Positions 6,747 through 53,788 of a stretch of DNA of 64,000 bases are shown here, piece after piece. The notes beneath the pieces were generated by a model. It searched no databases. It worked only from the letters and a program-made list of their open reading frames with translations, and was not told where the DNA came from. The stretch comes from a virus, in the IMG/VR virus record IMGVR_UViG_3300010392_000634; one strand, 5' to 3'. Position numbers and translations under genes: made by a program. How positions within the stretch are numbered: the first letter of the stretch is position 1; each line of letters starts with the position of its first letter.

Positions 6747-6815
6747 TATTTACATATCGTCTATTATCTAGTAAGATACATACATAACAAACAACATTAC
6801 TTTTAAGGAGATGCG

Positions 6816-6968
6816 ATGAAGACTTACGTTGTAATGCAGAGTATTCGTGGATTTGTGTTCAATGCTATGGTTACTCAAGACAAAACGCAGGCACTGGAAT
6901 TCGAAGACTATGACTATATTCAAATCTGGGAAGATGGTGAATTAGTCGATACTATCGGTGAAAACTAA
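6816..6968 (+). CDS. small hypothetical protein (50 aa)
   Basis: RBS AAGGAG at 6805; not in the ORF track (<60 aa). Confidence 0.4.
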   Translation: MKTYVVMQSIRGFVFNAMVTQDKTQALEFEDYDYIQIWEDGELVDTIGEN

Positions 6969-12910: not shown

Positions 12911-12920
12911 GAGGAAAATT

Positions 12921-13412
12921 ATGAGTACAACACCTAAACTTGGCGAGCTAACAACTGAAACAGAGCGTGATGCCATCCACCTTGCAGTAATTCCGTTGAT
13001 TGCCTCACATAACACGACACCGGGACAGAACGTTGGTCTGAACGAATACGGACAGGCAGATGCGGATGCATACCCACATGTTGGTATTGTTGACCCATAT
13101 TTGAAGAAGATGGTTTTCAAAGGACAGAAGATGTGGGTATGTTTGTATCCTGATACTGTAACTGGTATGAAGCATCACTGGGAACATCCTGTATTCCGTA
13201 AACTGGAAGAGGCATATGGTGTACGTGCACCTGAAGCTACTCTTGAAGAGATAACTAAACTATCTGAAAATGAGTATGACTCAGAAGTGGACGACTTTGA
13301 AATTTGGTGCTGCGGGTCAGACGCACCGGAGCCTGAAGACAAATACGAAGAAGATGAAGACGACACTTGGTCGTGTTGTCCAGATGATGATGACGAATGG
13401 TCTTGCTGTTAG
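12921..13412 (+). CDS. paralog-family protein A1 (DAIHLAV ... PGQ ... GIVDPYL ... KHHWEHP), Cys-rich acidic tail
   Basis: Shares ordered motifs with 17385..17948 and 50421..51026; C-terminus WCCGSD ... WSCCPDDDDEWSCC. Confidence 0.55.
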   Translation: MSTTPKLGELTTETERDAIHLAVIPLIASHNTTPGQNVGLNEYGQADADAYPHVGIVDPYLKKMVFKGQKMWVCLYPDTVTGMKHHWEHPVFRKLEEAYGVRAPEATLEEITKLSENEYDSEVDDFEIWCCGSDAPEPEDKYEEDEDDTWSCCPDDDDEWSCC

Positions 13413-14335: not shown

Positions 14336-15196
14336 ATGAAACTACTGATTCCAACATGTGATGCCAGCCTTTTTCTTCTGCCATTATATGAACACTTGTT
14401 TAACAAGTACGAGCTAGGTTCTATCTTTGAGCCTGTTGTACTTGGTTTTACTGAACCTAAAGATTGTGGTATGGAATTTGTGTCAATGGCAGACAAACAG
14501 GATTGTTGGTCCCGACATATATACGATTATCTCAATTCTATTTCAGATGAGTATGTAGCCTTCACTCTCGAAGACTTCTTGCCTGTAAGTAGAGTAGACG
14601 CTGAATCATTCCACTCATTGATGGCTGCAATGTTGTCTGGTAATGTTGGTCGTGCGGACCTAACGTGGGATTTGTATGCAAATTGTGAAACACAGGTATA
14701 TAATACTCTTGAAGATAAACCTTACAGTTTAATCTCGTGTCCGCGTGACGGACGTATGGTAGAGGGTAAGTCTTTATATCGTATTACTACACAGCCTGCT
14801 ATATGGCGACGTGATTACCTGATGAAGTTTCTGAAAAACGAATGGACACCTTGGAATTTTGAGATTGATGGGTCTTCACTATCTTCTCAGTTCCCAGAGG
14901 AAGTTATCGGTATTTGTGACCCAACTTTTAAACATTATCCTACTAAATGGACGCCTAAAGGTGCGATTAGTCGTGCTCAACCGGGAAAATTCAATTGCTT
15001 AGGGATGGATATTGAAACCATTAAAGAGTGTATTGAACTGGGATACTTAAAAGAGGAAGACTTAATCTGGGGCATGTGGGTTGGTAATCCAGTTACATTT
15101 CATGGTGGTGGTGGATATAACTTCACTGTAGATAGGATGCCTTTCCATTCTGCAAGTCCTACTAACTGGGAAGAATGGAGAAGTACTTATGAGTAA
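14336..15196 (+). CDS. hypothetical protein
   Basis: 286-aa ORF with no recognisable motif. Confidence 0.55.
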   Translation: MKLLIPTCDASLFLLPLYEHLFNKYELGSIFEPVVLGFTEPKDCGMEFVSMADKQDCWSRHIYDYLNSISDEYVAFTLEDFLPVSRVDAESFHSLMAAMLSGNVGRADLTWDLYANCETQVYNTLEDKPYSLISCPRDGRMVEGKSLYRITTQPAIWRRDYLMKFLKNEWTPWNFEIDGSSLSSQFPEEVIGICDPTFKHYPTKWTPKGAISRAQPGKFNCLGMDIETIKECIELGYLKEEDLIWGMWVGNPVTFHGGGGYNFTVDRMPFHSASPTNWEEWRSTYE

Positions 15197-15428
15197 TATT
15201 CTATTAACATACTTTACATTTATGGCCATACTTGGATGGATATCTTTTGCTGTGCTATCAAATGAATATTTTGTACTTGAAAGTGATGAGGCCAAAGCTG
15301 GTGTAATTTTAGGTTCTATTTTTTGGCCAATCGGAATTTTTCTTGGTGTTTGCTATTGCATTTTTAAATGTTTTATGGTATTTTACCGTCTGTACAATAA
15401 ATATGCAACTAACTTTTTGAAAGACTAA
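15189..15428 (+). CDS. small two-helix membrane protein, FWPIGI family
   Basis: Contains SIFWPIGIFLGV. Confidence 0.5.
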   Translation: MSNILLTYFTFMAILGWISFAVLSNEYFVLESDEAKAGVILGSIFWPIGIFLGVCYCIFKCFMVFYRLYNKYATNFLKD

Positions 15429-15642: not shown

Positions 15643-15818
15643 CGAAAATTTTATATGAATCGCTCTTAGTTTTTCTAAGTTTATTCTATATCATACAGTT
15701 CATACTATTTATAGTGTACGCTTGGAAAGATAGCGAAAATCCTAATATGATTTCTGTATGGAAGTGGGCACTTATATCCTCAACAATTTTAACTATTCTA
15801 ATCAAGGTGTTAGTATGA
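15606..15818 (+). CDS. small membrane protein
   Basis: Hydrophobic 70 aa; start uncertain (ATG 15606 or GTG 15639). Confidence 0.35.
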   Translation: MYRVWYESPCKVTKILYESLLVFLSLFYIIQFILFIVYAWKDSENPNMISVWKWALISSTILTILIKVLV

Positions 15819-16567
15819 CAGACTTATATGAAAAGTACCATAACGAGATGATGAAGCATATCAATGAAAACAACATTGATAAAGAGGATGCTTATCAATT
15901 ACTCGAAGCAGCAAAAGATTATTCTAATATGGAGCTGGAGCATGCTCTTAAGGTACTCGACTGGGAAGTTGGAGAGGTAAACCTAGACAGAGTTTACAAC
16001 TTTGCACAAGATGCACATTCTGGTCAAACTAGGAAAGATGGTAAGACACCATATTTTAGACATCCTGTACAAGTACGCGACCTTTTGGTAAAATGGGGTG
16101 TTGAAAATACTAACATTCTTGCCGCTGCTCTTCTACATGATGTATTAGAAGATACAGACGTAACTGGCCCACAATTGAAAAAAGTTTCAAATGGTTTAGT
16201 ATTAGATTACGTTTTACAGTTGACACACCATGAAGATGATGATAAGATTGAATATATCAGGGATTTTGCTAATATTCATTTAAAAAGCACTGAAGTAGTT
16301 CTTATTAAAGTAGCAGACCGTTGTTGTAACACGCTTGACTTTGTAAAGAGCGACCCAAAATATGCAGTAAAATATTGGAGAAAAGGGGAGCCTATTCTTG
16401 AAGGATTACGAGCACATATTTATAATTGTACATACGGTGATGGTTACCCCGGCCTTTTGCATTCACTACAAAATGCGAAAAAGTTTGTTGATGTAATGTA
16501 CCAGTTAATCTATGCTTTAGATTCTGTACAGGTTCGTAAGCGTGAAGTATATGATTTACTAAAATAA
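15815..16567 (+). CDS. HD-domain protein, RelA/SpoT-type (p)ppGpp hydrolase-like
   Basis: FRHPVQV ... AALLHDVLEDT motif (H ... HD ... ED); start moved to ATG 15815 with an ATGA overlap. Confidence 0.55.
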   Translation: MTDLYEKYHNEMMKHINENNIDKEDAYQLLEAAKDYSNMELEHALKVLDWEVGEVNLDRVYNFAQDAHSGQTRKDGKTPYFRHPVQVRDLLVKWGVENTNILAAALLHDVLEDTDVTGPQLKKVSNGLVLDYVLQLTHHEDDDKIEYIRDFANIHLKSTEVVLIKVADRCCNTLDFVKSDPKYAVKYWRKGEPILEGLRAHIYNCTYGDGYPGLLHSLQNAKKFVDVMYQLIYALDSVQVRKREVYDLLK

Positions 16568-19023: not shown

Positions 19024-19344
19024 ATGACTATTACAGAATACGTTGCAGAACACTACCCGAATCATACTATTGTCTTCTCTACATGTAGTCCGAAGCTGCT
19101 TGAGAGTTACCTCGAATTGTATTCGTTGTGTGTCAGGGACTCTGATAATGACTATCGGCTATTCAGGCTGGATTATGACTTTTACGGAATGATTGCGATG
19201 GCTCTATTAATTGAAGACTGGCAACGTGACGATTTTGTTGATGAAATAGTGTCAAGACTATATAAAATAGCTGTGGTTAGTAAAGATGCAGGCTACCACC
19301 TCGCTCTCTCACATCTGCATGAAAATGAACCTAGTAATAATTAG
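19024..19344 (+). CDS. hypothetical protein
   Basis: 106-aa ORF. Confidence 0.5.
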   Translation: MTITEYVAEHYPNHTIVFSTCSPKLLESYLELYSLCVRDSDNDYRLFRLDYDFYGMIAMALLIEDWQRDDFVDEIVSRLYKIAVVSKDAGYHLALSHLHENEPSNN

Positions 19345-19357
19345 CAGGAGAAAAAAG

Positions 19358-19582
19358 ATGAGTTGGTTTTTAGTTGTAGTTTATATTCTAGTAGTAGTCC
19401 CTATTGTATATGAGTGCTACCATGAAGATTCTCGTTCAATGGAAGAGATTGTTGGCAAATACACTTTGGCAGCATTGTGGCCTATCGCTGTATGTGCTCT
19501 TTTTATCGGAATAGTTGGCTCAGTGTACTACGAGATTTATTCTGACATTTCTGATAAAATTGACAAAGACTTGGAGAATTGA
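19358..19582 (+). CDS. small membrane protein
   Basis: RBS AGGAGAAAAAAG; start moved to ATG 19358. Confidence 0.45.
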   Translation: MSWFLVVVYILVVVPIVYECYHEDSRSMEEIVGKYTLAALWPIAVCALFIGIVGSVYYEIYSDISDKIDKDLEN

Positions 19583-20539: not shown

Positions 20540-21001
20540 ATGGAACATTATTTAGCTGTTGTTGAAGCATCAAAAGCGTACGAAAAAGCAAAGCAATTGG
20601 TATTCGATGTATACTATGAATCTACTATCAAGAATTTAGAAAAGGCTTTTCAGGAGCTGTTTGATACATATCCTCAGTTGACTGCATTCGACTGGCGACA
20701 GTATGTTCCTTCATTTAATGATGGAGATGCATGTTATTTTACAGTCAATAACTGGGGAACATGTTGGTTCACTGTAGATGGAGTCACTTTTGATGTTGGC
20801 GACTATGCAGATTATGAAGAGTATGATTATAATACAGCTAAGTCTGTTCTAAAACAAAACGGACTTGATGAGGTCGGTAACGAAATATGTTGCTTGATTG
20901 GTGCTGTTCCATATGATATCATGGAGAAGCGTTTTGGAACTTATTCTCATGTAAAGGTTACCCGTGAAGGAATTGAGGAGGATGAATACTATGATTATTA
21001 A
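20540..21001 (+). CDS. hypothetical protein
   Basis: RBS GAGGAAAA; start at ATG 20540. Confidence 0.5.
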   Translation: MEHYLAVVEASKAYEKAKQLVFDVYYESTIKNLEKAFQELFDTYPQLTAFDWRQYVPSFNDGDACYFTVNNWGTCWFTVDGVTFDVGDYADYEEYDYNTAKSVLKQNGLDEVGNEICCLIGAVPYDIMEKRFGTYSHVKVTREGIEEDEYYDY

Positions 21002-21380
21002 TAAAGAAAATATCAACTCATATGAATACACTAACGTTATGGTAGGACCATTAACTTTTACCTTAATTCCTTTTCTGATTGGTGCTTTACCTATTATATT
21101 TGAATCACCAACATTCTTGTGGTTTGCTTTCTGGTCATTCCTCTTGTTTTTTCTTTCTGCTTTATTTGGATTTATTGCCGGATGCATTGGGCTTTCTAGT
21201 ACTGGTGGATATGGCAATGATATGCTAGTAGATAGAATTCCACGCTCTGAATCAATCACGTATATTGTCTGTTGTACTATCTTTCCTTTACTGTGGATTG
21301 CTCTATTTATTGGATGTGTAAAAGGATTGTTACGGCCACTGTCACATATTTTTAAGTCTTTGATGAAGGAAGAAAAATGA
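20982..21380 (+). CDS. two-helix membrane protein, FWP-family-like
   Basis: RBS GAGGAGG; C-terminal motif TIFPLLWIALFIG. Confidence 0.5.
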   Translation: MNTMIINKENINSYEYTNVMVGPLTFTLIPFLIGALPIIFESPTFLWFAFWSFLLFFLSALFGFIAGCIGLSSTGGYGNDMLVDRIPRSESITYIVCCTIFPLLWIALFIGCVKGLLRPLSHIFKSLMKEEK

Positions 21381-22585
21381 ACAGGCGAGAATTTTTAGGT
21401 GTAACTAGCTTAGGTGTACTTGGTGTCGGTCTTAGTTTCGGTAATGTATCTGTTTCTGAAGAGCAGAAGAAAAAGGGGAGCGTGATTTACATCACACTTG
21501 GTGGTGGTGCTTCACACGTTGAGTTCTTCAATCCTGCTCCAGATGCTCCATCAGAGTATCGCTCAGTTACTGGTAACATCTATACTAATACGCCGGGATT
21601 ACACTTTGGTAGTCTTATGCCTAATCTGGCCAAAATGTCAGACCAGTTTACAGTAGTAAAATCATTCACTCATCGTGACTTCAACCACGCTAGTGCAACA
21701 CACTTAGTTCAAACAGGAAAATATAATACACGTACTCCTGATACACAAACATGGCCAAGTTATGGGAGTGTTGTAAGCGAACAACTTGGTGCTGTTGGTA
21801 AGACTGGGCTACCTAGTTATATCAAACTGAACAAGACAGACCATGACGGGGCTGCTTGGCTAGGATTAGACCATTCTGGTTTCAATGCATCTAAGGAAGG
21901 TTTAGGCGACATGATTATGAAGGTGTCCGAAGAGAGATTCCTTCGCCGTGAGCAAATGTTGTCAGAGATTGATAAGAGTGGCAATATTCGTGACCCTTGG
22001 CTTAAGTTGCGTGACCAAGCTGTGGGTGTTTTAATGGGTGATGCATCAAAAATCTTCAACATTACCAAAGATACGATGTACAATGACTATAAAGACTCTC
22101 AGTTCGGCAAAGACTTGTTAACTGCCAGACGTCTTGTTCAAGGTGGAGCTGCTTTTGTTAAAGTCAGTAATCCGGGCTGGGATATGCACTCTAATATCGA
22201 GTCTGGACTAAAATCTAAACAAGGTGAGATTGATAAGTATCTTGCTATCCTTATTTCTGACTTAGAGAATAAGGGTCTTAATGAAGACGTGTTAGTTGTA
22301 TTCACCACAGAGTTTGGAAGGACACCGAAGATTAATCCTCAGTCTGGACGTGACCATTGGGCAAAAGTGTGTAATCTGATGCTTTATGGTGGAAGATACA
22401 ACGGTGGATTCATTGGAGAAGTTGACAGAACCTCAAGTGAGGTAGTTAGCGAACCAGTAACACCTGCTGACTTATGTAAGACTGTGCTAGACCATTGTGG
22501 TATTGCTGACAATGCACATACTATTGATAATTTGCAACGTCCTAGAATGTTTGTAGAAGATACAGCTAAAATAATTGGAGTATGA
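21377..22585 (+). CDS. Tat-signal secreted protein, DUF1501 / sulfatase-superfamily-like (tentative)
   Basis: N-terminus MNRREFLGVTSLGVLGV carries a twin-arginine motif; 402 aa; the family assignment is from memory and is weak. Confidence 0.5.
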   Translation: MNRREFLGVTSLGVLGVGLSFGNVSVSEEQKKKGSVIYITLGGGASHVEFFNPAPDAPSEYRSVTGNIYTNTPGLHFGSLMPNLAKMSDQFTVVKSFTHRDFNHASATHLVQTGKYNTRTPDTQTWPSYGSVVSEQLGAVGKTGLPSYIKLNKTDHDGAAWLGLDHSGFNASKEGLGDMIMKVSEERFLRREQMLSEIDKSGNIRDPWLKLRDQAVGVLMGDASKIFNITKDTMYNDYKDSQFGKDLLTARRLVQGGAAFVKVSNPGWDMHSNIESGLKSKQGEIDKYLAILISDLENKGLNEDVLVVFTTEFGRTPKINPQSGRDHWAKVCNLMLYGGRYNGGFIGEVDRTSSEVVSEPVTPADLCKTVLDHCGIADNAHTIDNLQRPRMFVEDTAKIIGV

Positions 22586-22847
22586 TATGAGTACTATTAT
22601 CTGGTTTTTTGTAATTTCTTGCATACTTAGTCTTGTATTTTTTCTGCTGGCCTGCTATTATCTTAATATGGGACACGGCAATAGAAAAATAATTGACAGC
22701 TACACTCGTTATCAAGTGTGCAAGATTATTGCTGGTTCAATTTTTTGGTGGGTTACTTTTTTTGTTGTGATTCGTAAGTGCTATACATCAATAAGCAAAC
22801 CAGTGACAAACGTGTTTAAATATGTCGTAGGAGATAATGATGAATAA
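22575..22847 (+). CDS. small membrane protein
   Basis: 90-aa hydrophobic ORF. Confidence 0.45.
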   Translation: MEYDMSTIIWFFVISCILSLVFFLLACYYLNMGHGNRKIIDSYTRYQVCKIIAGSIFWWVTFFVVIRKCYTSISKPVTNVFKYVVGDNDE

Positions 22848-23196
22848 AGTTGATGGTGATTTGATTGGTCCTTGGGTGTGTACTGTATTATTGAATCTAA
22901 TTGTATCTCTTATTGTTGTGGCTATATGTGCTCCAGTATCGACAATCGTAGGGTTTTTAATTTTATTCTCTGTCTGGTTTATTCCATCTGGTATTATTTG
23001 CTTTGTGTTTTCTGCACATGAAATCACGGCGAATAGTAATCATTATACAAAAAAAGACGCTTGGGAAATTAGCTTATTTTCACTTTTTTGGCCAATTGGT
23101 ATTATGATTTTATTAACGTATGCTTTGATTCTAGCATGCAAGCCAATTGGTGGACTTTTACAGAAGTTGGGGTTGCAAGATGAACGTACCAAATAA
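22837..23196 (+). CDS. membrane protein, FWPIGI family
   Basis: Contains LFWPIGIMILL. Confidence 0.5.
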   Translation: MMNKVDGDLIGPWVCTVLLNLIVSLIVVAICAPVSTIVGFLILFSVWFIPSGIICFVFSAHEITANSNHYTKKDAWEISLFSLFWPIGIMILLTYALILACKPIGGLLQKLGLQDERTK

Positions 23197-23707
23197 AGAT
23201 TATGTTATAATCAATGCCCTTTTTGGGTTTTTCCCATTAGTTTTATTTTTTTTATTTTGTATCATATTCTTGTTCTTGGATATTGGCTTGCCGTTATTTG
23301 TACTCTTGTTGTTATTTGTCATTGCAGCTTATAGTGCAAGCGTGATATCACTTATTGTCTCTGCATGTTATCATATACATACTTCAAGAGTAGACTATGA
23401 CCTTGAAAAACCTCGACTTGATGATTACAGAGACGGTTATGACCACGATTGGGGTAAATACAATGTTGATGTAGCAGAATATGAAGCTACAAGAAAATAT
23501 GCACCAATCGAAAAAATGAGTAGAACAGACGTTATTAAACTAATGGTTACATTGACATTTTGGCCAGTATTTGTGTTAAAATGTATTTTTGACTGGCTTG
23601 TATCATTATTTAACCCAATTATCAAAACTTTTGTTTATATTATAGGAGAAAAGAATGAAGGCGATTCGGATGCCGAAGATAGAACAGTTTCGGACAGTAG
23701 TCAGTAA
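23180..23707 (+). CDS. membrane protein, FWP family
   Basis: Contains TFWPVFVLKCIF; start at ATG 23180. Confidence 0.5.
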   Translation: MNVPNKDYVIINALFGFFPLVLFFLFCIIFLFLDIGLPLFVLLLLFVIAAYSASVISLIVSACYHIHTSRVDYDLEKPRLDDYRDGYDHDWGKYNVDVAEYEATRKYAPIEKMSRTDVIKLMVTLTFWPVFVLKCIFDWLVSLFNPIIKTFVYIIGEKNEGDSDAEDRTVSDSSQ

Positions 23708-24719
23708 CATCAAGCGTACAGCTCAATTTGTTGGGCTGGATGAAAATGGAGATGCTATTGTTGATAGAGATGCCAAGATGCCAACAGTTACTTTTACTGG
23801 TACTGTAAAACTACATGGAACTAATGCATCTATTGTAAGAACTTCTGATGGTCAGATTTATCCCCAGTCTAAGACTAATGTTATTAGCATGGAAAAAGAT
23901 AATGCTGGCTTTGCTCAGTTTGTCCACTCTAATCACGAAGTACTTAAGGACATGTTGGACTGTATTGCATACGACCTAGAACGCAATGCAGCTATGTATA
24001 AAACTCCATGTGAGTTTGACCCTGAGTCTAGTATTACAGTTTATGGAGAATGGGCTGGTGGAAACATTCAAAAAGGATGTTCTTTAAATGGTCTAGATAA
24101 GATGTTCTTCATTTTTGCTTGTAAAGTTACCCCAAACGATGAAGAAAAGCAGTCTTACTGGATTCAATCTGGGCATCAACATATTAGACCAAGCCGACAC
24201 GATGACATCAATACTCATAACATTTATGACTTTGATACATATACAATTGATATCGATTTTAACGAGCCGGACTTATTTACTGAAGAGCTTGAGCGTATCA
24301 CTCTTGCTGTAGAGGAAGAGTGTCCTGTCGCTAAGATGTTCGGTGTCGAGAAAGGTGTTGGTGAGGGTGTAGTATGGACTGGTTGGTACAATGGTAACAT
24401 CTATAGATTCAAGGTTAAGGGAGAAAAGCACTCAGTAACTAAGGTTAAGAAGTTGGTTGTTGTAGCTCCTGAAAAGATTGAGTCTATGCAAAAGTTTGTT
24501 GAGTATGCCTGCACGCGTAACCGTTATGAGCAGGCCATCAATGAAGTTATCGGTGATGAAGAAAAGGCGATGAACCGTCTTGGTGATGTCATTCGATGGG
24601 TCCAGAAAGATATTATTGATGAAGAAACTGATGTTTTGACTGAATCTGGCTTGACACACAAAGATGTAGCGAGTAGAATTGCTACACAGGTCAGAACATG
24701 GTATCAGTCTGAATTATAA
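23655..24719 (+). CDS. RNA ligase, T4 Rnl2-like family
   Basis: Nucleotidyltransferase motif I KLHGTN; N-terminal domain typical of Rnl2; RBS AGGAGAAAAGA. Confidence 0.6.
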   Translation: MKAIRMPKIEQFRTVVSNIKRTAQFVGLDENGDAIVDRDAKMPTVTFTGTVKLHGTNASIVRTSDGQIYPQSKTNVISMEKDNAGFAQFVHSNHEVLKDMLDCIAYDLERNAAMYKTPCEFDPESSITVYGEWAGGNIQKGCSLNGLDKMFFIFACKVTPNDEEKQSYWIQSGHQHIRPSRHDDINTHNIYDFDTYTIDIDFNEPDLFTEELERITLAVEEECPVAKMFGVEKGVGEGVVWTGWYNGNIYRFKVKGEKHSVTKVKKLVVVAPEKIESMQKFVEYACTRNRYEQAINEVIGDEEKAMNRLGDVIRWVQKDIIDEETDVLTESGLTHKDVASRIATQVRTWYQSEL

Positions 24720-24736
24720 AAAAATGGAGAGTAACT

Positions 24737-24934
24737 TTGAGTTTAATATTTGAAAGTATTGATTCTGAAGGAAATGACGCTGAGATGCGTGCTACAAGAG
24801 TTCCATATGGAACTGATAGGCGTGATAGATTACGTATTAGCGTTTCTCTTCCGTGGAACGATGGTCCACGTGACATTGAACTCACTAGAAAACAAGCCGA
24901 TGAACTAGTTAAACTGATTGGAGAAATGCAATGA
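24737..24934 (+). CDS. hypothetical protein (TTG start)
   Basis: 65-aa ORF with GGAGAG RBS. Confidence 0.35.
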   Translation: MSLIFESIDSEGNDAEMRATRVPYGTDRRDRLRISVSLPWNDGPRDIELTRKQADELVKLIGEMQ

Positions 24935-25254
24935 TTATTGACAGTAAAACAAAACGTGTAGTTGACTGCTTTCGTTCAGACGACTATGCTGGACTTGAGT
25001 ATGGTGACTATGCCTTCTATTATGGTTACGAAGAGACTGTTCCTAAGCACGATTTAGAAAATGGTGAGTGGGCTTTCGTTGCCGACTACAAAGGTAATGA
25101 GTTGTGTCGTCTGACTGTAGATGATTTTAAAGAATATGTTTGTAGAAATACATTCGAAAGGCTTGACAAATGGAATGTTGAGCATGTATTATTAACCGGA
25201 GTTGGAATTGTTTTAAATAACGAAAAATTTCACCCAGAAAGAAAGGCAATGTAA
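24931..25254 (+). CDS. hypothetical protein
   Basis: 107-aa ORF. Confidence 0.5.
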   Translation: MIIDSKTKRVVDCFRSDDYAGLEYGDYAFYYGYEETVPKHDLENGEWAFVADYKGNELCRLTVDDFKEYVCRNTFERLDKWNVEHVLLTGVGIVLNNEKFHPERKAM

Positions 25255-25610
25255 TGAAATGTTTCCCAGAATCAGTTGGCGTTTTTGGTCCCGTTTTGTC
25301 CCTCACAGCAAGTTTAATTTGTTTTGTAACTCTATTTGAGGCTAGTCTCATTGGTGTACTGTTTTTGCTGGTTGCAATCAGTTGCTTCAATTTGTTAGCT
25401 GCGATTCTATTTTTTACTTCTGAGTCATTATGTAGTAGTAGTCCACGTATTAATGATTACAATAAAGTTACAGTTGCTACAGTATTATTTTCTTCTGTAT
25501 GCTGGCCAATCGGAATCTTAATTGGACTATTTGCTCTGCTCAAAGTTGCTGCAGGACCACTTATGTTAGTTGTTAATAAGTTTGCAGATACTAAGTCAGA
25601 TACAGAGTAA
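25254..25610 (+). CDS. membrane protein, FWPIGI family
   Basis: Contains VCWPIGILIGLF. Confidence 0.5.
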   Translation: MKCFPESVGVFGPVLSLTASLICFVTLFEASLIGVLFLLVAISCFNLLAAILFFTSESLCSSSPRINDYNKVTVATVLFSSVCWPIGILIGLFALLKVAAGPLMLVVNKFADTKSDTE

Positions 25611-25638
25611 AATCTCAATTATATAGAAAGAATTAAAA

Positions 25639-26763
25639 GTGAAACCAGTTAAAATTTACGCTGAAAATATTGAAGAGACAGCATTAGAGCAGTTTAATTC
25701 AGCTTTAGAGTTGGATTGTGTCACTCGTGCTGCACTTATGCCTGACGCTCATACTGGGTACAGCCTACCAATTGGTTCTGCTGTTGAGTCTGACCAGATT
25801 GTTTTTCCAAGTTGGGTTGGATATGATATCGGTTGTGGTATGTCTGCAATCCCCACCAGCTTCACGAAAGAAAAGGTAGAACAGAACTCAAAAGATATTT
25901 TTCATCAGATTTATCGTGATGTTCCTACTGGATTCACTGAGCATGACGATAAGCAGTTTTGGAATGAGGCTACTCATTTCGATGCTACACCTGAGCTAGA
26001 AGAACGATTCTGGACTGGAAATGCACAGAACCAGCTTGGTACTCTTGGTGGTGGTAACCACTTCATTGAAGTAGGATACGATGAGAACAATCAGGTATGG
26101 ATTATCATTCACTCTGGTTCTCGTAAGCTGGGACATCGTACTGCTGAGCGATATATGAAAATTGCTGCTGGACAGGACCCAGAAGACCGGAAGAAAGCAA
26201 AAGAAGGTCACTACGGTTTCGCTGTTGATTCAGAAAATGGTGAGAATTACATCAAGGACTTGAATTACTGTTTACAGTATGCTTTAGCAAACCGTCGTCA
26301 TATGATTGAGAATGTTATTCAAAGCATCTCACGTAAAGTAGGTGGCGGCTATGGAGAATGGGACCGTTTCATCAATCGTAACCACAACCATGCCGAGGAC
26401 CGTAAAGACGATGGTAAATGGATTCATCGTAAGGGTGCTACACATGCTGAGAGTGGCATGGACGGTGTTATTCCGGGCAATATGCGTGATGGTTCCTTCA
26501 TCGTAGTTGGTAAGGGTAATCCAGACTCTCTGTATTCCAGTTCTCATGGAGCTGGGCGTGTACTCTCTCGTAGTAAGGCACGTAAGACTCTGAATGTCGA
26601 TGACTTCGTTAAAGATATGGAAGGTATCACTGCTCGCGTTGAAGAGAAAACTCTTGATGAGTCTAGTAGTGCCTATAAAAACATCTTTGAGGTGATGGAC
26701 CTACAGAAAGACTTAGTCAATGTTGTTACTCACGTCAAGCCAATTATCAATGTGAAGGGATAA
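25639..26763 (+). CDS. rtcB: RNA-splicing ligase RtcB
   Basis: GGGNHFIEVG, HSGSR and HNHAED motifs; 374 aa; GTG start. Confidence 0.8.
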   Translation: MKPVKIYAENIEETALEQFNSALELDCVTRAALMPDAHTGYSLPIGSAVESDQIVFPSWVGYDIGCGMSAIPTSFTKEKVEQNSKDIFHQIYRDVPTGFTEHDDKQFWNEATHFDATPELEERFWTGNAQNQLGTLGGGNHFIEVGYDENNQVWIIIHSGSRKLGHRTAERYMKIAAGQDPEDRKKAKEGHYGFAVDSENGENYIKDLNYCLQYALANRRHMIENVIQSISRKVGGGYGEWDRFINRNHNHAEDRKDDGKWIHRKGATHAESGMDGVIPGNMRDGSFIVVGKGNPDSLYSSSHGAGRVLSRSKARKTLNVDDFVKDMEGITARVEEKTLDESSSAYKNIFEVMDLQKDLVNVVTHVKPIINVKG

Positions 26764-26765
26764 TA

Positions 26766-26927
26766 ATGGAAATTGGAACTGACCATGATGGCAATAAAAT
26801 AGAGATGAATGTCAAAAAGGAAAGTGATGCAGTCTACCGATTCACTGTCGGGAATCATGGCGTATACACTAATATAGATGGTATATTGAGAATCATCGAC
26901 TATATAAAAGAAAGTATCTCAGAATGA
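26766..26927 (+). CDS. small hypothetical protein (53 aa)
   Basis: Fills the gap between rtcB and the next gene with an ATGA overlap. Confidence 0.4.
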   Translation: MEIGTDHDGNKIEMNVKKESDAVYRFTVGNHGVYTNIDGILRIIDYIKESISE

Positions 26928-27316
26928 AAATTTTAAATGAATTAAAAAATGATGCAGAGACGCGATGTTTCTTCTTCTGGTTTGGATTACTTGTAACAGC
27001 AATTGGTTTTGGATTGGCGGCCATTGCCACTAGCTTGATTTTTTTCTTGCCAAAATTATTGACTTTGGTTTTGTGTTTTGCCATGGTTTGTCCTTTTCTC
27101 GGATTTGTGTTTGCCTGTTTGATTACTCATGATACTCGTGAATCAGAAACAAGAGAAGAGGTTGGTGCAGTATTACTTGTATGTACTTTTTATCCCATTA
27201 CATGGTTATATATTGTAGTTTCTGCTATATTTCCATTGTTTAACAATTTTATGTACTGCCTCAAGTCAATGAGAGATACAGTAATGTATGTAATTGAAGG
27301 GAAAACAGATGAATAA
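26924..27316 (+). CDS. membrane protein, FWP-family-like
   Basis: Contains FYPITWLYIVV. Confidence 0.5.
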   Translation: MKILNELKNDAETRCFFFWFGLLVTAIGFGLAAIATSLIFFLPKLLTLVLCFAMVCPFLGFVFACLITHDTRESETREEVGAVLLVCTFYPITWLYIVVSAIFPLFNNFMYCLKSMRDTVMYVIEGKTDE

Positions 27317-27776
27317 GTTCTGGTATGGAATTTCTGTAACATTTGTTTTGTGTGTTGTTGGAGTATTTTCACATGCTGAACCTATCGATGCACCAAAACC
27401 TTTTGTTTCAGAACAAGTCAATTTTGGCATTATATTTCCGGGTAAGGTAATTAATGTTGTTGATGGTGATACAGTTGATGTAGAAGTAAGACGCGTAATC
27501 CGTATTCGTATGTTAGACTGTTGGGCACCAGAATCACGCACAAAAGATTTAGCAGAGAAAAAAGAGGGTCTGGAAGCAAAGGCTGAGCTGGCAAAAATTA
27601 TTAGTGGTCGCAAAGTAGTCGTACAGGTTCCTATTGGTAGAGATGCTAGATTTGGTGAGTCTATGACTTTTGACCGTGTTCTTGGACGAATTATTGACGA
27701 AGAAACACGTCTTGATTACTCTAAGTATATGGTACAGCACGGCTTCGCAACTAAAAATAAGGAAAAAGATGATTAA
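27309..27776 (+). CDS. secreted thermonuclease (staphylococcal-nuclease-like)
   Basis: Signal peptide followed by VVDGDTVDVE ... RIRMLDCWAPE, the SNase Ca-binding and catalytic motif. Confidence 0.6.
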   Translation: MNKFWYGISVTFVLCVVGVFSHAEPIDAPKPFVSEQVNFGIIFPGKVINVVDGDTVDVEVRRVIRIRMLDCWAPESRTKDLAEKKEGLEAKAELAKIISGRKVVVQVPIGRDARFGESMTFDRVLGRIIDEETRLDYSKYMVQHGFATKNKEKDD

Positions 27777-28377
27777 ATACGTTAAAGGGGACTTATTTGA
27801 TTTTGTCAATCAGACTGAATCGGAATACGATGTTACTTTTATTCCACATATTGTCAATACGTATGGATATTGGGCGTCTGGTTTTGTTTGTGCAGTAGAG
27901 TCACATTGCCCAGCAGCCAAGAGTCGTTATGACTCCTTGTTTGAAGGCGTTCATGCTCCATATGATTACGGCGAAGCAAATAAATGGCTTCTAGGTATGA
28001 ACCAGATTGTGTTCACCAACACTCGGAGTACTGCAATTATCAATATGTTCGCTCAGTTATTCGGTGGTGATAGACCATTAAGATACAATGCACTTACAAA
28101 GTGTATGGATAGCATAGGAGACTCAGTGCAGACATCTGAACATAAAGTTCGCATTGTAGCTCCTATGTTTGGGAGCCTTCGGGCTGGAGGAAATTGGGAT
28201 TTTATTGAGAAATTAGTAGAAGATTGCTGGATTTCTCGCGGTATTGATACTACAATAGTAGAGTACATACACAAACAAATTAAGAGTCAATGCCAAAAGT
28301 GCAACAAACAAGAGAAGCCTTTGTTTCGTATGTCAAATACTTTGTATTACTGTAGGGAATGTTATTCAGAAAGGTAG
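27769..28377 (+). CDS. macro-domain protein (ADP-ribose 1''-phosphate / O-acetyl-ADP-ribose processing family)
   Basis: GDLF ... IPHIVNTYGYWASGF resembles the macro-domain ligand-binding motifs; C-terminal Cys cluster. Confidence 0.5.
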   Translation: MIKYVKGDLFDFVNQTESEYDVTFIPHIVNTYGYWASGFVCAVESHCPAAKSRYDSLFEGVHAPYDYGEANKWLLGMNQIVFTNTRSTAIINMFAQLFGGDRPLRYNALTKCMDSIGDSVQTSEHKVRIVAPMFGSLRAGGNWDFIEKLVEDCWISRGIDTTIVEYIHKQIKSQCQKCNKQEKPLFRMSNTLYYCRECYSER

Positions 28378-28379
28378 TC

Positions 28380-28733
28380 ATGGACTATAAATTAGCAGAT
28401 GCTATTCAAACAACACTCTTTTGGGTCGGATTAGGTGTATTTGTTCTGTGTTTTCTGGCATGTACCCCTATACCATTTATACTCATAACATGGCCAATCT
28501 TAGCTATTATTTCTTCTACTTATTATTGTATTGGGCTAGTAGCAAAAAAAAGATATGATGATGTACCAAGAGATATTGAACAGGTTACTAAACTAGAAGT
28601 TATTACGATTCTTTTTTGCTGCTTTTTCTGGCCAGTTGCTTTGCCCTGTTTGGGGGTATATCTAATCGGATGCATGATATCTTTTCTATGCAAGCCATTT
28701 AAAGAGGTGTTTGAATTTTTAATTAAGGAGTAG
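28380..28733 (+). CDS. membrane protein, FWP family
   Basis: Contains CFFWPVALPCLG. Confidence 0.5.
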   Translation: MDYKLADAIQTTLFWVGLGVFVLCFLACTPIPFILITWPILAIISSTYYCIGLVAKKRYDDVPRDIEQVTKLEVITILFCCFFWPVALPCLGVYLIGCMISFLCKPFKEVFEFLIKE

Positions 28734-28735
28734 AT

Positions 28736-30013
28736 ATGCTTGAGTGGCTGACAACTTATTATACAGACTTTATCGCATTCAGTAAATCAAATCCTTTATT
28801 TGCCGGTATTATAAGTGTTTGGGGATTAGGAGTTGTAACATTCTGTTTACGGACTGTTCCGAGTAAAATTTTTAATTTCATTTACAGACAGTGTACTACC
28901 AACTTAGTTCTTAATAGTTACGATAGTATCTATCATGAGTTCTTACAATGGGTGTCTGAAAACAATATGCACTCATTTGTGCGTGACCTTAACTTCAATA
29001 ATAGAGGCGTGTGGAGTGAAGGTGTTCCAATGATTAGCATAGGATATGGGAAAACGATTTTCCTATTCAAGAGACGACTCTTCGTTCTTCATAGATTCAA
29101 AGAAGAAGCTAATCAGACAATGAGACCGAAAGAAACAATCAAGATTACTTTGATTGGTAGGTCGCATCAAATTTTTAGTGAGCTATTCGATGTTATACAT
29201 GAAAGTCAGGAAGAAGAAAACTCAATCAGCGTCCATACTTGGAAAGAGGGATGGAATTACACTGCTTATCAACCAAAGCGTGATTTAGATACTGTAGTTG
29301 TAGAAGAACATATTAAACAAGATATTCTCACCTGTATTGATAATTTCATTGGTGATTCTGATTGGTATTTTAAAAATGGAATACCATATCATCTTGGGAT
29401 TATGTTTCATGGACCAAGTGGAACAGGTAAGACGAGCTTAATCAAAGCTATCTGTGCTAAATATGACCGTCCATTATATATTATTCATCTTTCTAGAATG
29501 AGCGATGATACTCTTGAAACAGCTTTGGCTGAGATTCCTATCGGTGCTGTGGTTGCAATCGAAGATATTGACACCGCTAACTTAGGTAAAAGAAATATCA
29601 GTAATAAAATTACGACAATTAAACAAAGTGGTACAATGTCTCTTGTTCGAGGAACGAGCCATGGAGACTCTGAGGCTTCTTTGACACTCGGTGGTGTATT
29701 AAATGCTCTTGATGGAATTACTACATCAGAAGGTAGAATTTTAATTGCTACCACTAATGTTTTAGACTCGCTTGATGAGGCGTTAATTCGCCCCGGAAGA
29801 TTTGATTTGACAAAAGAAATAGGTTATATGACAGACGATACTCTACGTACGTACTTGGGAAGATTTTATCCGTATGATTTTTCCAAATGGTGTGTTAATG
29901 ACAATGTTAAACCTTGTGATGTTCAGAAGTTAGTTTTTGATAACCGTAACTCGCCTGACAATGTACTTGCAGCAGTGGCACATAGGTGTGATAATGGAGG
30001 ACTTGAAGATTGA
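28736..30013 (+). CDS. AAA+ ATPase, BCS1-like
   Basis: N-terminal TM helix; Walker A GPSGTGKTS; Walker B VVAIEDID. Confidence 0.7.
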   Translation: MLEWLTTYYTDFIAFSKSNPLFAGIISVWGLGVVTFCLRTVPSKIFNFIYRQCTTNLVLNSYDSIYHEFLQWVSENNMHSFVRDLNFNNRGVWSEGVPMISIGYGKTIFLFKRRLFVLHRFKEEANQTMRPKETIKITLIGRSHQIFSELFDVIHESQEEENSISVHTWKEGWNYTAYQPKRDLDTVVVEEHIKQDILTCIDNFIGDSDWYFKNGIPYHLGIMFHGPSGTGKTSLIKAICAKYDRPLYIIHLSRMSDDTLETALAEIPIGAVVAIEDIDTANLGKRNISNKITTIKQSGTMSLVRGTSHGDSEASLTLGGVLNALDGITTSEGRILIATTNVLDSLDEALIRPGRFDLTKEIGYMTDDTLRTYLGRFYPYDFSKWCVNDNVKPCDVQKLVFDNRNSPDNVLAAVAHRCDNGGLED

Positions 30014-30963
30014 ATAAACATGAATTAATTGGAAAAGAGTTTAAGGTACTGAGTCATGGTAGTATTATGCTAGTTGACTATATGGGTAGTGACGAAGAGA
30101 TTGAGAATGCTGCTCGTATTTCATACGGTGAAGGTACAAGACCAGTAAGTGAGACGCGTACGTTGCTACGTTACCTCAAGAGACACTGGCACACTACACC
30201 ATTTGAGATGGCTGAGCTGAAATTTAAGATTAAGATGCCTATGGATGTAAACCGTCAGTGGATTCGACACCGTACTGCTAACGTTAATGAGTACAGTACA
30301 CGCTATTCAAATCCTATTGATGATACGGATACTACACCTGTATGGCGTAAGCAAAGCACAAACAACAAGCAGGGTAGTGACGGGAAAGTCACAGAATGGC
30401 CTGAAGGTTGTGAGTGGGAATGTGAAATAGAATGGCATGATACTCCCAGCAGTTTTTTATCTGAAATGGAACAGGAGACTATTAAAGCGTGTAAAAGTTT
30501 TTATGATATTACACAGCAATTTGGGGTTGCTAAAGAGGTGTCACGCAAACATCTACCTTTGAGCACCTATACTGAAATCTTCTGGAAGTGTGACCTGCAT
30601 AATATCATGCATTTTCTACGCTTACGTTGTGACTCACATGCACAACAGGAGATTCGTGAGTACGCTAACATTATGGCTGGTATTTGCAAAGAGTTATTCC
30701 CTTTAAGTATGGAAGCGTGGTACGATTACGCTCATATGTCTCGTAACTTCAGTCGTCAAGAGATGAAAATTTTGCAACACGTACTGGATAGAGAACAGAT
30801 TCGTAATTCTGGTGTACTAAAAACTCTGGCTCAACAGGTTGGATTGTACGACCCTAATCGAAAAAGTAACCGTGAGTACGATGAATTTGTGAAAAAATTT
30901 GCAGATAATTACTCTACTAGTATTGACTCTGAGTTTGAATTGCCTTATAATAAGGAAGACTAA
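30010..30963 (+). CDS. thyX: flavin-dependent thymidylate synthase ThyX
   Basis: ThyX motif RHRTANVNEYSTRYS (RHR ... S.R). Confidence 0.8.
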   Translation: MNKHELIGKEFKVLSHGSIMLVDYMGSDEEIENAARISYGEGTRPVSETRTLLRYLKRHWHTTPFEMAELKFKIKMPMDVNRQWIRHRTANVNEYSTRYSNPIDDTDTTPVWRKQSTNNKQGSDGKVTEWPEGCEWECEIEWHDTPSSFLSEMEQETIKACKSFYDITQQFGVAKEVSRKHLPLSTYTEIFWKCDLHNIMHFLRLRCDSHAQQEIREYANIMAGICKELFPLSMEAWYDYAHMSRNFSRQEMKILQHVLDREQIRNSGVLKTLAQQVGLYDPNRKSNREYDEFVKKFADNYSTSIDSEFELPYNKED

Positions 30964-53773: not shown

Positions 53774-53788
53774 CTTAGGAGAAATACT

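Follow-up and report, generated by a model that had tools for sequence, protein, structure and literature searches.

Do an Rnl2-like RNA ligase, an RtcB ligase, a staphylococcal nuclease (SNase)-like protein and a macrodomain, encoded within 5 kb of a phage genome, act together on broken RNA, or are they independent neighbours? The window analysed here (64 kb, 64,000 nucleotides) is only part of a genome, the contigs of relatives being 165–175 kb long. A first-pass annotation of this window had described the locus as an RNA end-healing and sealing toolkit next to a large tRNA array with possible split tRNAs. The four open reading frames it named are present, all on the + strand, as are all genes of the region:

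23655–24719, + strand: Rnl2-like ATP-dependent RNA ligase, 354 aa (the JGI gene call starts at 23670)
24737–24934, + strand: ORF of unknown function between the two ligases, 65 aa; a homolog directly follows Rnl2 in the related phage L001 (E 9e-7)
24931–25254, + strand: ORF of unknown function, 107 aa, recurring upstream of RtcB in relatives
25254–25610, + strand: small membrane protein, family paralog (leave-one-out HMMs)
25639–26763, + strand: RtcB, GTP/Mn-dependent ligase joining 3'-P or 2',3'>P to 5'-OH, 374 aa, GTG start (Pfam, PHROG)
26924–27316, + strand: membrane-family paralog between RtcB and the SNase-like gene; orthologs in L001 (15211–15645, E 7e-17) and in the related phage L166 (9120–9515)
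27309–27776, + strand: SNase-like (thermonuclease-fold) protein, 155 aa (weak Pfam, PHROG and PDB matches)
27769–28377, + strand: ALC1-like macrodomain, SCO6735/Bt_1257 subclass, 202 aa (PDB profile, AF2/Foldseek)
28359–28733, + strand: membrane-family paralog after the macro gene (the JGI call starts at 28380)
20964–21380, 22575–22847, 22837–23196 and 23147–23707: further membrane-family paralogs

In profile HMM searches, Pfam confirmed the ligase and RtcB; the SNase-like protein scored just under the cut-off, and the macrodomain, missed by Pfam, was found via PDB and profile matches. The gene identities of the first-pass annotation hold (that of the SNase only weakly), as do its two ligases of opposite end chemistry in a tRNA-rich phage; the healing step, the role given to ADP-ribose-1''-phosphate (Appr1p) and split-tRNA maturation are unsupported.

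Two RNA ligases of opposite end chemistry

The Rnl2-type ligase with a KLHGTN motif was confirmed by Pfam RNA_ligase (PF09414, 6.7e-10), by phrog_548 'RNA ligase' over its full length (8e-59), and by comparison with T4 Rnl2 (gp24.1; PDB 2HVQ/2HVR). The profile of the homolog family matches 2hvq at 2e-7 over residues 53–314, which include both domains, and the AF2 model (pLDDT 84.7) has 2hvr as its best Foldseek match (1e-12); T4 Rnl2, of the same two-domain fold, is thus the best PDB match by both methods. Motifs I (KLHGTN, aa 52–57, K52, nt 23808–23825), III (YGEW, E132), IV (GEGVVW, E237) and V (FKVKGEKH, K253/K255) are kept, with the catalytic Lys, Glu, Glu and KxK, and a C-terminal helical domain is present. 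Identity to T4 Rnl2 is only 16–17%, however, the NCBIfam Rnl2 model TIGR02307 gives only 23 bits (cut-off 197), and the Asp of the T4 FYVFD stretch (motif IIIa) aligns with Ala or Gly. There are 4569 homologs, and those of cultured Vibrio, Erwinia and Caulobacter phages, about 40% identical, are annotated 'RNA ligase 2'. Judged from sequence and model, the ligase is Rnl2-like but belongs to a phage clade separate from T4 Rnl2.

Given its fold and motifs, this enzyme would seal 3'-OH/5'-P nicks in duplex RNA, which would provide a second, non-redundant sealing chemistry. It could use the products of anticodon nucleases only if another part of the genome encodes a kinase-phosphatase. We know of no established biological role for T4 Rnl2 itself.

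RtcB matched PF01139 at 2.3e-90 and phrog_1075 at 6e-116, and carries the GGGNHFIEVG motif on which it had been recognized (aa 137–146). In an alignment with Pyrococcus horikoshii RtcB, GYDIGCG (Asp/Cys), GGGNHF (His), HSGSRKLGH (His) and NHNHAE (His) are kept, as is SSSHGAGR with the His303 nucleophile (nt 26545–26547). The metal-binding Asp, Cys and His and the GMP-accepting His of E. coli RtcB and P. horikoshii PH1602 (PDB 1UC2/4DWQ) are thus all conserved, and the sequence makes the RtcB identity certain. The protein is shorter than the P. horikoshii chain (374 versus 481 aa) and falls below the NCBIfam equivalog cut-offs. Its partners RtcA, RtcR, archease and PrfH are absent from the Pfam lists of the 64-kb window.

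The enzyme would directly reseal broken RNA with the 2',3'-cyclic-P or 3'-P and 5'-OH ends that metal-independent ribonucleases produce, and this sealing would require no healing enzyme. Anticodon nucleases, HEPN toxins and MazF-type toxins make such breaks and are candidate sources of them in vivo. The proposed purpose, to reverse the cutting of anticodon loops by a defence nuclease of the host, is that of T4 Pnkp-Rnl1 in the repair of PrrC-cleaved tRNA-Lys; the window has neither Pnkp nor Rnl1, and RtcB would need only a single step, of different chemistry. The phage, which has 27 tRNAs and a tmRNA, encodes the two RNA ligases of opposite end chemistry 0.9 kb apart, and repair of RNA breaks inflicted by defences is the usual interpretation of such ligase genes (PMC7824862).

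The 'end-healing' part of the first-pass title had to be dropped, as no end-healing enzyme was found in the 64 kb. Complete Pfam lists for all 117 + strand ORFs contained no Pnkp, other kinase-phosphatase, 2H/CPDase, RtcA or RlaP; Rnl1, KptA/Tpt1, archease and Ro60 (TROVE) were likewise absent from the window, and phmmer searches of it with Pnkp, Rnl1, DNA ligase and PARP from the related locus L003 returned nothing. The rest of the genome, outside the window, may still encode Pnkp or KptA.

Side by side, RtcB, an Rnl2-like ligase, a macrodomain and a probable nuclease are a gene repertoire already described for large phages. Jumbo-phage RNA-repair sets (Iyer et al., 2021; PMC7824862), such as RtcB, Rnl1 and Rnl2 in Burkholderia phages BcepSaruman and BcepSauron, likewise bring together at least two types of RNA ligase with a large set of tRNAs, a tmRNA and a macro domain, and have been read as non-redundant means of countering RNase effectors. 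Compared with these repertoires, the ATP-dependent ligase of the window has no polynucleotide kinase, phosphoesterase, KptA or RlaP within 64 kb, and the genes are interleaved with lineage-specific small membrane proteins.

The macrodomain and the SNase-like protein

Pfam gave no macro match for the ORF at 27769–28377; the macro identity proposed for it was nevertheless borne out by PDB sequence matches and by superposition of the AF2 model. The single sequence matches macrodomain structures 5e3b, 2afc and 2fg1 at about 1e-9 to 1e-10 (5e3b, 3.5e-10). The family profile matches 2afc (2e-34), 2fg1 (4e-34) and 5e3b (8e-31), followed by ALC1, TARG1, Poa1p and DarG, and Foldseek aligns the model (pLDDT 89.4) with 2fg1, 2afc and 5e3b at TM 0.82–0.85. 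By sequence and model, the domain is real despite the Pfam miss, and is placed in the SCO6735/Bt_1257 subclass of ALC1-like macrodomains. An invariant Gln in NMFAQ aligns with NMIGQ of 2afc and 5e3b and would occupy the Gln85 position of SCO6735, in the subclass that has this Gln where TARG1 and DarG have a catalytic Lys (PMC9411070). The macro class also includes Poa1p, a yeast Appr1p phosphatase, which keeps Appr1p processing among the possible activities.

SCO6735 of Streptomyces coelicolor and Bt_1257 have the same fold as the phage protein and form its nearest sequence family; the phage protein, whose activity is predicted, differs by being phage-encoded and by a C-terminal CxxC...CxxC zinc ribbon (nt 28291–28362) common only to its nearest phage relatives. 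The characterised activity of the subclass is removal of DarT thymidine-ADP-ribose from DNA (PMC9411070), and DarTG is a cited phage defence (PMC11833690). By analogy with this homolog, the macrodomain with its zinc ribbon would be an ADP-ribosyl hydrolase that most likely strips ADP-ribose added to phage nucleic acid by host toxins such as DarT, or Glu/Asp-linked ADP-ribose from proteins; clearance of Appr1p is less likely.

The SNase-like gene, whose stop overlaps the macro start by 8 nt, gave near-threshold matches: 20.5 bits with Pfam SNase (cut-off 21), E 0.0015 with PDB staphylococcal nuclease and 2e-16 with phrog_452 'endonuclease'. A profile of three SNase-like sequences found no PDB match at E <= 0.01. 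DGDT, the R35-like and E43-like residues and 'RVLGR' are kept, and the D40 position is W. These matches weakly support an SNase-like nuclease, and its export is also weakly supported. The label 'secreted' fits the copy in the window, which has a GAAGGGA Shine-Dalgarno upstream of ATG 27309, no later start codon and a signal-like hydrophobic N-terminus (27309–27383); the L166 copy also combines such an N-terminus with W at the D40 position. It does not fit the L001 ortholog, which has no N-terminal extension and keeps the D40-type Asp. Because of its signal-like N-terminus, the protein of this phage probably acts outside the cytoplasm: it would be a probable nuclease, exported or membrane-anchored, and hence outside cytoplasmic RNA repair.

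In the pathway of the first-pass annotation, RNA would be cut, healed and sealed by Rnl2 or RtcB, and the macrodomain would clear Appr1p coming from a 2'-phosphotransferase. Processing of Appr1p from tRNA splicing requires Tpt1/KptA and a ligase leaving a 2'-phosphate, and neither is in the window. By established enzymology, junctions made by RtcB or Rnl2 carry no 2'-phosphate, and the Appr1p argument is therefore unsupported. The 64 kb also lack 2H, Pnkp, RtcA and RlaP, the nuclease bears a signal-like N-terminus, and the nearest characterised macrodomain works on thymidine-ADP-ribose in DNA (PMC9411070). This integrated pathway is thus unlikely, despite the grouping of the genes within 5 kb on one strand, the membership of Poa1p in the macro class and the KptA-2H-Macro RNA repair proposed by reviews for some jumbo phages (PMC7824862, PMC9503650). 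We found no evidence that the four enzymes act as a single repair pathway, and the reading as an 'end-healing toolkit' lacks support.

The tRNA array and a permuted tRNA-like element

The large tRNA array exists, but 'next to' describes it loosely, as it starts at 47036, 18.7 kb downstream of the cluster. Its 27 tRNAs and tmRNA are all collinear and full-length, and cover 19 amino acids and a suppressor; no split tRNA, as had been suspected, and no intron-containing tRNA was found among the 27 detected. One element outside the cluster has a permuted order:

about 46818–46890, + strand: permuted tRNA-like element, YrlA-type topology (Rfam YrlA, ARAGORN)

It reads anticodon-stem 3' strand, variable region, T-arm, acceptor 3' strand, 2-nt linker, acceptor 5' strand, D-arm and anticodon-stem 5' strand, and ARAGORN calls a tRNA only once the two halves are re-ordered. 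Rfam YrlA matches it over the full model (35.2 bits, gathering score 69; E 1.3e-4); there are mismatches in its outer (Ro-binding) helix, and no GNCGAA motif was seen on reading the sequence. A second permuted element, with compensating stems, lies in the tRNA array of phage L170.

RtcB ligates permuted and spliced tRNAs in archaea and eukaryotes. This role and the two permuted elements would fit an RtcB, possibly with Rnl2, dedicated to the maturation of split, permuted or intron-containing tRNAs of the downstream array. We regard this as very unlikely: all 27 tRNAs and the tmRNA are collinear, full-model matches that already cover the amino acids listed above, the window Pfam lists contain no splicing-endonuclease family, the element is 20 kb away from RtcB, and its closed acceptor hairpin fits a YrlA tRNA mimic rather than a gene requiring ligation (PMC4201824). 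RtcB and a YrlA arrangement (T-arm, closed acceptor stem, D-arm) also occur together in the Salmonella rsr-yrlBA-rtcBA operon (PMC4201824), compared with which the phage element is below the gathering score, distant from RtcB and in a window without TROVE/Ro60.

Conservation of the cluster and its accessory setting

At 80 IMG/VR loci with this Rnl2 clade, the usual neighbours are Rnl1 (33 loci), a Pnkp-like gene (18) and DNA ligase (43), whereas RtcB, the partner of the ligase in the window, lies within 10 kb at two. Conversely, an Rnl2-like gene is found at 1 of 80 RtcB loci, and the macro, SNase and membrane families at none. Since so few or no other loci combine these genes, the cluster is not a conserved module; it is specific to this phage lineage. 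Within the lineage, L001 keeps all four genes, as the integrated pathway would predict, but L166 and L167 keep RtcB and the macro gene with no Rnl2 within 10 kb, which, like the lack of conservation outside the lineage, argues against that pathway. The Rnl2-like ligase, missing at the locus in two of four related phages, is an optional gene.

RtcB, the SNase-like gene and the macro gene stay adjacent in three of the four relatives, down to 62% macro identity. The persistent adjacency and the 8-nt overlap could reflect a functional link, a point against independent genes that we discount.

Micrococcal-type nucleases leave 3'-phosphate ends. The three genes might form a lineage-specific trio that cuts, cleans and rejoins damaged or modified RNA or DNA, the macrodomain removing ADP-ribose adducts from ends or bases: SNase-type cuts give 3'-P and 5'-OH, exactly the RtcB substrate, and TARG1-class macrodomains act on ADP-ribosylated nucleic acids (PMC11833690, PMC9411070). 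The order RtcB, membrane paralog, SNase, macro is common to the window, L001 and L166, the SNase/macro overlap recurs in two phages, and the L001 SNase has its D40-type Asp and no signal peptide. However, synteny with these relatives extends over the whole region, so that adjacency is not specific evidence; in place of the SNase-like gene, L167 has one for a different, non-SNase protein; signal-like N-termini and W at D40 occur in the copies of the window and of L166; this macro or SNase is near none of 80 other RtcB loci; and SCO6735 was reported inactive on 5'-phospho-ADP-ribosylated RNA and DNA (PMC11833690). We therefore consider such a trio improbable.

The four genes are most likely independent counter-defence genes, a pattern published for jumbo phages, and on balance we favour the view that the locus is an accessory, counter-defence-type region of an uncultivated large phage, with independently acting enzymes packed on one strand. 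Accessory genes cluster in this phage lineage, and the four would be neighbours without forming one pathway. The accessory character of the region is evident from what else the window encodes: ThyX and Band_7, glycosyltransferases and a 'GT4-conflict' domain, an HD_4 hydrolase and a Tad2-like (Thoeris anti-defence) domain. A promoter and terminator scan of the region gave no enrichment compared with shuffled sequences.

The small ORFs of 65 and 107 aa had no match in Pfam, PHROG or NCBIfam. Homologs of the latter share DDYAxL..YxFYYGYEETVP and lie upstream of RtcB in L166 (6122–6445) and immediately upstream in L167 (7071–7370). The small membrane proteins are a lineage-specific family with at least seven paralogs in the window, 10–12 in L001 and seven in L166. 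Each has two to three hydrophobic segments and was recovered among 384 window ORFs by leave-one-out HMMs (E 1e-7 to 5e-10); only 19 matches at E <= 1e-3 were obtained among 1.84 billion representative proteins.

Identity of the four proteins

The + strand carries essentially all coding in the window, whose GC content is ~38% and which appears to be a segment of a large phage genome. The same sequence was found as a 9-kb JGI metagenome contig (sample 3300010430). The sole match of positions 23000-29000 in a megablast search against 50,697 phage records was a stretch of 48 nt in RtcB, so the phage has no close cultured relative. Between 20.9 and 30 kb, the gene order is mp (a member of a lineage-specific family of small membrane proteins), DUF1501, three further mp, Rnl2-like ligase, a 65-aa ORF, a 107-aa ORF, mp, RtcB, a 53-aa ORF, mp, SNase-like protein, macrodomain, mp, a BCS1-type AAA ATPase, ThyX and a protein resembling nucleoside deoxyribosyltransferases. 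The four genes at issue are:

23655-24719, + strand, Rnl2-like ligase
25639-26763, + strand, RtcB (374 aa)
27309-27776, + strand, SNase-like protein
27769-28377, + strand, macrodomain

Scans of 19-32 kb gave 40 promoter-like sites for 41.8 expected and 4 terminators for 6.7 expected, and marked no operon boundaries.

The ligase was recognized by Pfam RNA_ligase (6.7e-10) and, over its full length, by a PHROG annotated 'RNA ligase' (8e-59). A phmmer search of the PDB with the single sequence gave no true match and a profile was required; built from 30 of 4569 homologs, this profile found T4 Rnl2 (2hvq) at 2e-7, covered both the nucleotidyltransferase and the C-terminal domains, and its alignment reached T4 residue 299. 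In the AF2 model (pLDDT 84.7), helices at 272-353 correspond to the all-helical C-terminal domain of the Rnl2 type, and the best Foldseek match was T4 Rnl2 (E 1e-12, 380 columns aligned to full length), followed by Trl1, Rnl1, REL1 and the Naegleria ligase. Nucleotidyltransferase motifs I (KLHGTN, K52), III (YGEW, E132), IV (GEGVVW, E237) and V (FKVKGEKH, K253/K255) do not vary among the 30 homologs and correspond in the alignment to those of T4 Rnl2. The Asp of the T4 Rnl2 motif IIIa stretch FYVFD aligns with Ala or Gly in the window ligase, and the NCBIfam Rnl2 equivalog model TIGR02307 scores it at 23.3 bits, below the cut-off of 197. These two differences indicate a separate Rnl2-like clade rather than a T4 Rnl2 equivalog; ~40%-identical genes of cultured Vibrio, Erwinia and Caulobacter phages are annotated 'RNA ligase 2'. 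From its motifs and modelled fold, the protein is predicted to seal 3'-OH/5'-PO4 nicks in duplex RNA.

The RtcB assignment is unambiguous (Pfam 2.3e-90, 304 bits for a cut-off of 27). Motifs GYDIGCG, GGGNHF, HSGSRKLGH, NHNHAE and SSSHGAGR align with those of P. horikoshii RtcB, and the metal-ligand Asp, Cys and three His are all present, as is the His nucleophile for guanylylation.

The macrodomain was missed by Pfam and NCBIfam. Its single sequence matched 5E3B (SCO6735), 2AFC and 2FG1 (Bt_1257) at about 1e-9 to 1e-10, and a 24-homolog profile matched the same structures at 1e-31 to 1e-34; ALC1, TARG1 and yeast Poa1p were more distant (~1e-5 to 1e-8), as was DarG (~5e-3). The AF2 model (pLDDT 89.4) retrieved 2fg1, 2afc and 5e3b in Foldseek at E 1e-11 to 1e-12 with TM 0.82-0.85. 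The invariant Gln of the phage NMFAQ motif aligns with NMIGQ of the SCO6735/Bt_1257 subclass structures, and would occupy the position of SCO6735 Gln85, which replaces the catalytic Lys of TARG1/DarG (PMC9411070). Fold, closest sequences and this Gln all point to an ALC1-like protein of the SCO6735/Bt_1257 subclass. Unlike SCO6735 and Bt_1257, the phage protein has an added CxxC...CxxC zinc ribbon, common only to its nearest relatives. SCO6735 efficiently strips DNA of the thymidine-ADP-ribose that DarT makes, and it rescues cells from this toxin (PMC9411070); the DarTG system is cited as a defence against phages (PMC11833690). By analogy, the phage macrodomain is a probable anti-ADP-ribosylation enzyme, predicted to hydrolyse thymidine-linked ADP-ribose on DNA or Glu/Asp-linked ADP-ribose on proteins.

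The fourth protein scored 20.5 bits with Pfam SNase, just below the cut-off of 21, and matched staphylococcal nuclease in the PDB at E 0.0015 and phrog_452 'endonuclease' at 2e-16; a 3-sequence profile found no match in the PDB. The ortholog in the related phage L166 was scored 'SNase (weak)'. Since the ATG at 27309 follows a good Shine-Dalgarno sequence and no start codon occurs further downstream, the ~25-residue hydrophobic N-terminus belongs to the protein. This signal-like N-terminus is also present in the L166 ortholog; that of a second related phage, L001, begins directly at the nuclease domain, behind stop codons. D21, R35 and E43 each have an equivalent. The position of the Ca-ligand D40 is Trp in the window and L166 copies, which carry the signal-like N-terminus, and Asp in L001; a counterpart of R87 requires 'RVLGR' to be read manually against 'YGRGLA', and the HMMER alignment differs. 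The SNase identity suggested by these sequence matches is weak.

The first-pass annotation, which had named an Rnl2-family ligase, RtcB, a staphylococcal-type nuclease and a macro domain, was thus largely right. Three identities are solid: the ligase stands, as a member of an Rnl2-like clade, on Pfam, PHROG, the T4 Rnl2 profile match and fold; RtcB on its Pfam score and complete active-site residues; and the macrodomain on PDB matches and fold, the Pfam check itself having given no match.

Partner enzymes and conservation of the cluster

The four genes had been interpreted as one RNA end-healing and sealing toolkit, in which the macrodomain would clear the Appr1p that tRNA splicing leaves. In Pfam lists that covered every one of the 117 + strand ORFs of the window, there was no polynucleotide kinase or phosphatase, no 2H/CPDase, KptA/Tpt1, RtcA, RlaP or archease, and no CCA-adding enzyme or TROVE; nor did phmmer searches of the window with the Pnkp-like protein and Rnl1 of another viral locus (L003) give a match. 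In T4-type heal-and-seal repair (Pnkp + Rnl1/Rnl2), a kinase-phosphatase is encoded along with the ligase, whereas the 64-kb window is without one; NAD-dependent KptA-2H-Macro repair requires KptA/Tpt1 and 2H, neither of which is in the window Pfam lists. RtcB needs no healing step, and Rnl2 without healing cannot use 2',3'>P/5'-OH ends. Neither RtcB nor Rnl2 leaves the 2'-phosphate that calls for Tpt1 and hence for Appr1p clean-up. With no KptA/Tpt1 in the window and no 2'-phosphate left by the ligases, the tempting splicing model for the macrodomain is unsupported and is corrected here.

Related loci were not found in IMG/VR with the single ligase sequence, and an alignment query succeeded. 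Of 80 IMG/VR loci that carry this Rnl2 clade, two had RtcB within 10 kb and one had a macro gene; the same loci contained Rnl1 (33), Pnkp-like (18), DNA ligase (43) and PARP-like (23) genes. Among 80 RtcB loci, an Rnl2-like gene was found once, and macro, SNase and the mp family not at all (0/80). The four-gene cluster is not a recurrent module. All four genes are kept in L001 (a 165-kb contig, ligase 67% identical), in which DUF1501 is relocated. L166 and L167, whose macrodomains are 62% and 49% identical respectively, keep DUF1501, RtcB, macro, BCS1 and ThyX, and Rnl2 is missing within 10 kb in both; an unrelated protein occupies the SNase position in L167. With no healing enzyme in the window, no recurrence and gene turnover within the lineage, the evidence does not support the integrated reading as 'end-healing and sealing'.

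An HD_4 (SpoT/MESH1-type) hydrolase is encoded at 15758-16567 of the window. HD_4 homologs occur within 10 kb in 28 of the 80 Rnl2-clade loci compared with 2 of the 80 RtcB loci, which suggests a recurrent Rnl2-HD_4 link.

The adjacency that persists in the lineage is that of RtcB, mp, SNase and macro, the SNase and macro genes overlapping by 8 nt in two phages. These three enzymes might be functionally linked as a lineage-specific trio; however, the adjacency is weak evidence for such a link because the region is syntenic as a whole, and we consider the trio unlikely. It is very improbable that the run of RtcB, SNase-like protein and zinc-ribbon macrodomain forms one nucleic-acid damage-reversal unit for de-ADP-ribosylation-coupled ligation. 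In such a unit, ADP-ribose adducts on the ends or bases of RNA or DNA would be stripped by the macrodomain; trimming by the nuclease would give 3'-P and 5'-OH ends, which RtcB would rejoin. Rnl2 would join as an optional extra, and the permuted tRNA mimic that heads the tRNA array might participate. We know of no description of such a pathway so far.

The reading that we favour, at slightly better than even confidence, is that the four genes encode independent counter-defence enzymes, with two sealing chemistries and a probable anti-ADP-ribosylation macrodomain. A Tad2-like domain, the HD_4 hydrolase, a 'GT4-conflict' glycosyltransferase and Band_7, all encoded in the same window, fit an accessory counter-defence region. 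The cluster is a new instance of a known pattern in the RNA-repair repertoire of jumbo phages, in which the RNA ligases were judged non-redundant, and for Macro, KptA and 2H a possible role either in NAD-dependent RNA repair or against ADP-ribose signals was suggested (PMC7824862; also PMC9503650). If independent counter-defence is the true explanation, this is one more uncultivated lineage of large phages that counter host defences with stacked RNA ligases, tRNAs and ADP-ribose hydrolases. The practical value is modest: a compact RtcB, a divergent Rnl2-like ligase from a large clade, and a zinc-ribbon phage macrodomain as a candidate anti-DarT factor.

Small membrane proteins and neighbouring genes

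The less ordinary items sit beside the cluster: the lineage-restricted mp family and a permuted tRNA-like RNA near the tRNA array. The window contains the following members of the family:

20964-21380, mp copy
22575-22847, mp copy
22837-23196, mp copy
23147-23707, mp copy
25254-25610, mp copy
26924-27316, mp copy
28359-28733, mp copy
4448-4687, weaker mp candidate
15189-15428, weaker mp candidate
19286-19582, weaker mp candidate

Leave-one-out HMMs (E 1e-7 to 5e-10) showed that the copies are a true paralog family. They have 2-3 transmembrane segments and the motif T[KR]xxV..FWP[IV]..KP followed by an acidic tail, and are interleaved with nearly every enzyme gene. Phages of the lineage carry 7-12 copies (10-12 in L001, 7 in L166). 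The family had no Pfam, PHROG or NCBIfam match and 19 matches in all among 1.84 billion representative proteins; deep searches returned the same phage lineage only. At the DNA level, 19-31 kb contained no repeats beyond short ones expected by chance, which argues that the paralogs are neither recent DNA duplications nor cassette borders.

The DUF1501 protein (21377-22585, Pfam 2.9e-70) has a twin-arginine-type N-terminus, MNRREFLGV, and is kept near RtcB in all four related phages; NCBIfam gave no match for it or for the small ORFs. An ORF of ~100 aa with the motif DDYAxL..YxFYYGYEETVP (window 24931-25254, L166 6122-6445, L167 7071-7370) lies upstream of RtcB in three of the four related phages, immediately so in L167. 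It is without any family match and could be an RtcB-associated factor. The BCS1-type AAA ATPase (28736-30013; BCS1_N and AAA domains, hydrophobic N-terminal segment) adjoins the macro and ThyX genes in all relatives, and is preceded in L167 by two inserted genes, for a PspA-like and an ion-channel protein. ThyX is intact in the window (30010-30963); that of L166 (11903-13741) is split by an intein, whose Intein_splicing and NUMOD4 domains separate the halves of Thy1. The Tad2-like (Thoeris anti-defence 2) domain (Pfam 6.7e-8) is in one ORF within 32-21001 of the window; in L166 it lies at 1502-1822, 8 kb upstream of the macro gene.

The tRNA array and a permuted tRNA-like element

The window encodes 26 tRNAs and a tmRNA at 47-60 kb, to which Rfam adds a tRNA at 48256-48324, probably Ala(CGC), missed by ARAGORN. 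Split tRNAs had been proposed, and no split gene was found in the array. The 92-nt tRNA-Asn(GTT) at 53683-53774, considered as a split or intron-containing gene, is intact, and its variable arm is long (Rfam 50.6 bits). At 51328-51401 lies a tRNA of the amber-suppressor type, anticodon CTA ('Pyl' in ARAGORN; Rfam 65.6 bits); stop-codon recoding, considered for this reason, is not evident in this region, TAG terminating 23 of 107 tallied window ORFs. After the TAG-ended ORFs 760-969 and 12921-13412, the next ORF continues in frame.

Just upstream of the array lies:

~46818-46890 (flanks 46797-46917), + strand, circularly permuted tRNA-like element

Its order is T-arm, acceptor 3' strand, a 2-nt UA linker, acceptor 5' strand and D-arm, with outer flanks that close an anticodon-type stem, and a degenerate second 3' half follows at 46892-46917. 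ARAGORN called a tRNA only when the halves were swapped, and Rfam YrlA scored 35.2 bits, below the gathering score of 69. In Salmonella, YrlA RNAs occur together with Ro60 and RtcB (PMC4201824). In contrast to the Rsr(Ro60)-YrlA-RtcB module, the window lacks TROVE/Ro60, its YrlA score is subthreshold and the Ro-binding helix is not conserved.

When the permuted pattern was scanned for elsewhere, most matches were ordinary tandem tRNAs; L170 gave one clear case and L176/L180 a partial one, and none reached YrlA at E 0.001 or better. In the tRNA arrays of L176/L180, around 6805-6850, the 7-bp acceptor hairpin is the sole clear feature, pairing of the anticodon-like stem being partial. The L170 element (IMGVR_UViG_3300012988_000040, ~12896-13061, - strand) lies within a phage tRNA array, and both its stems differ from those of the window in a compensating manner (acceptor UAGUGGG/CCUAUUA, anticodon-like GGAGAA/UUCUCC).
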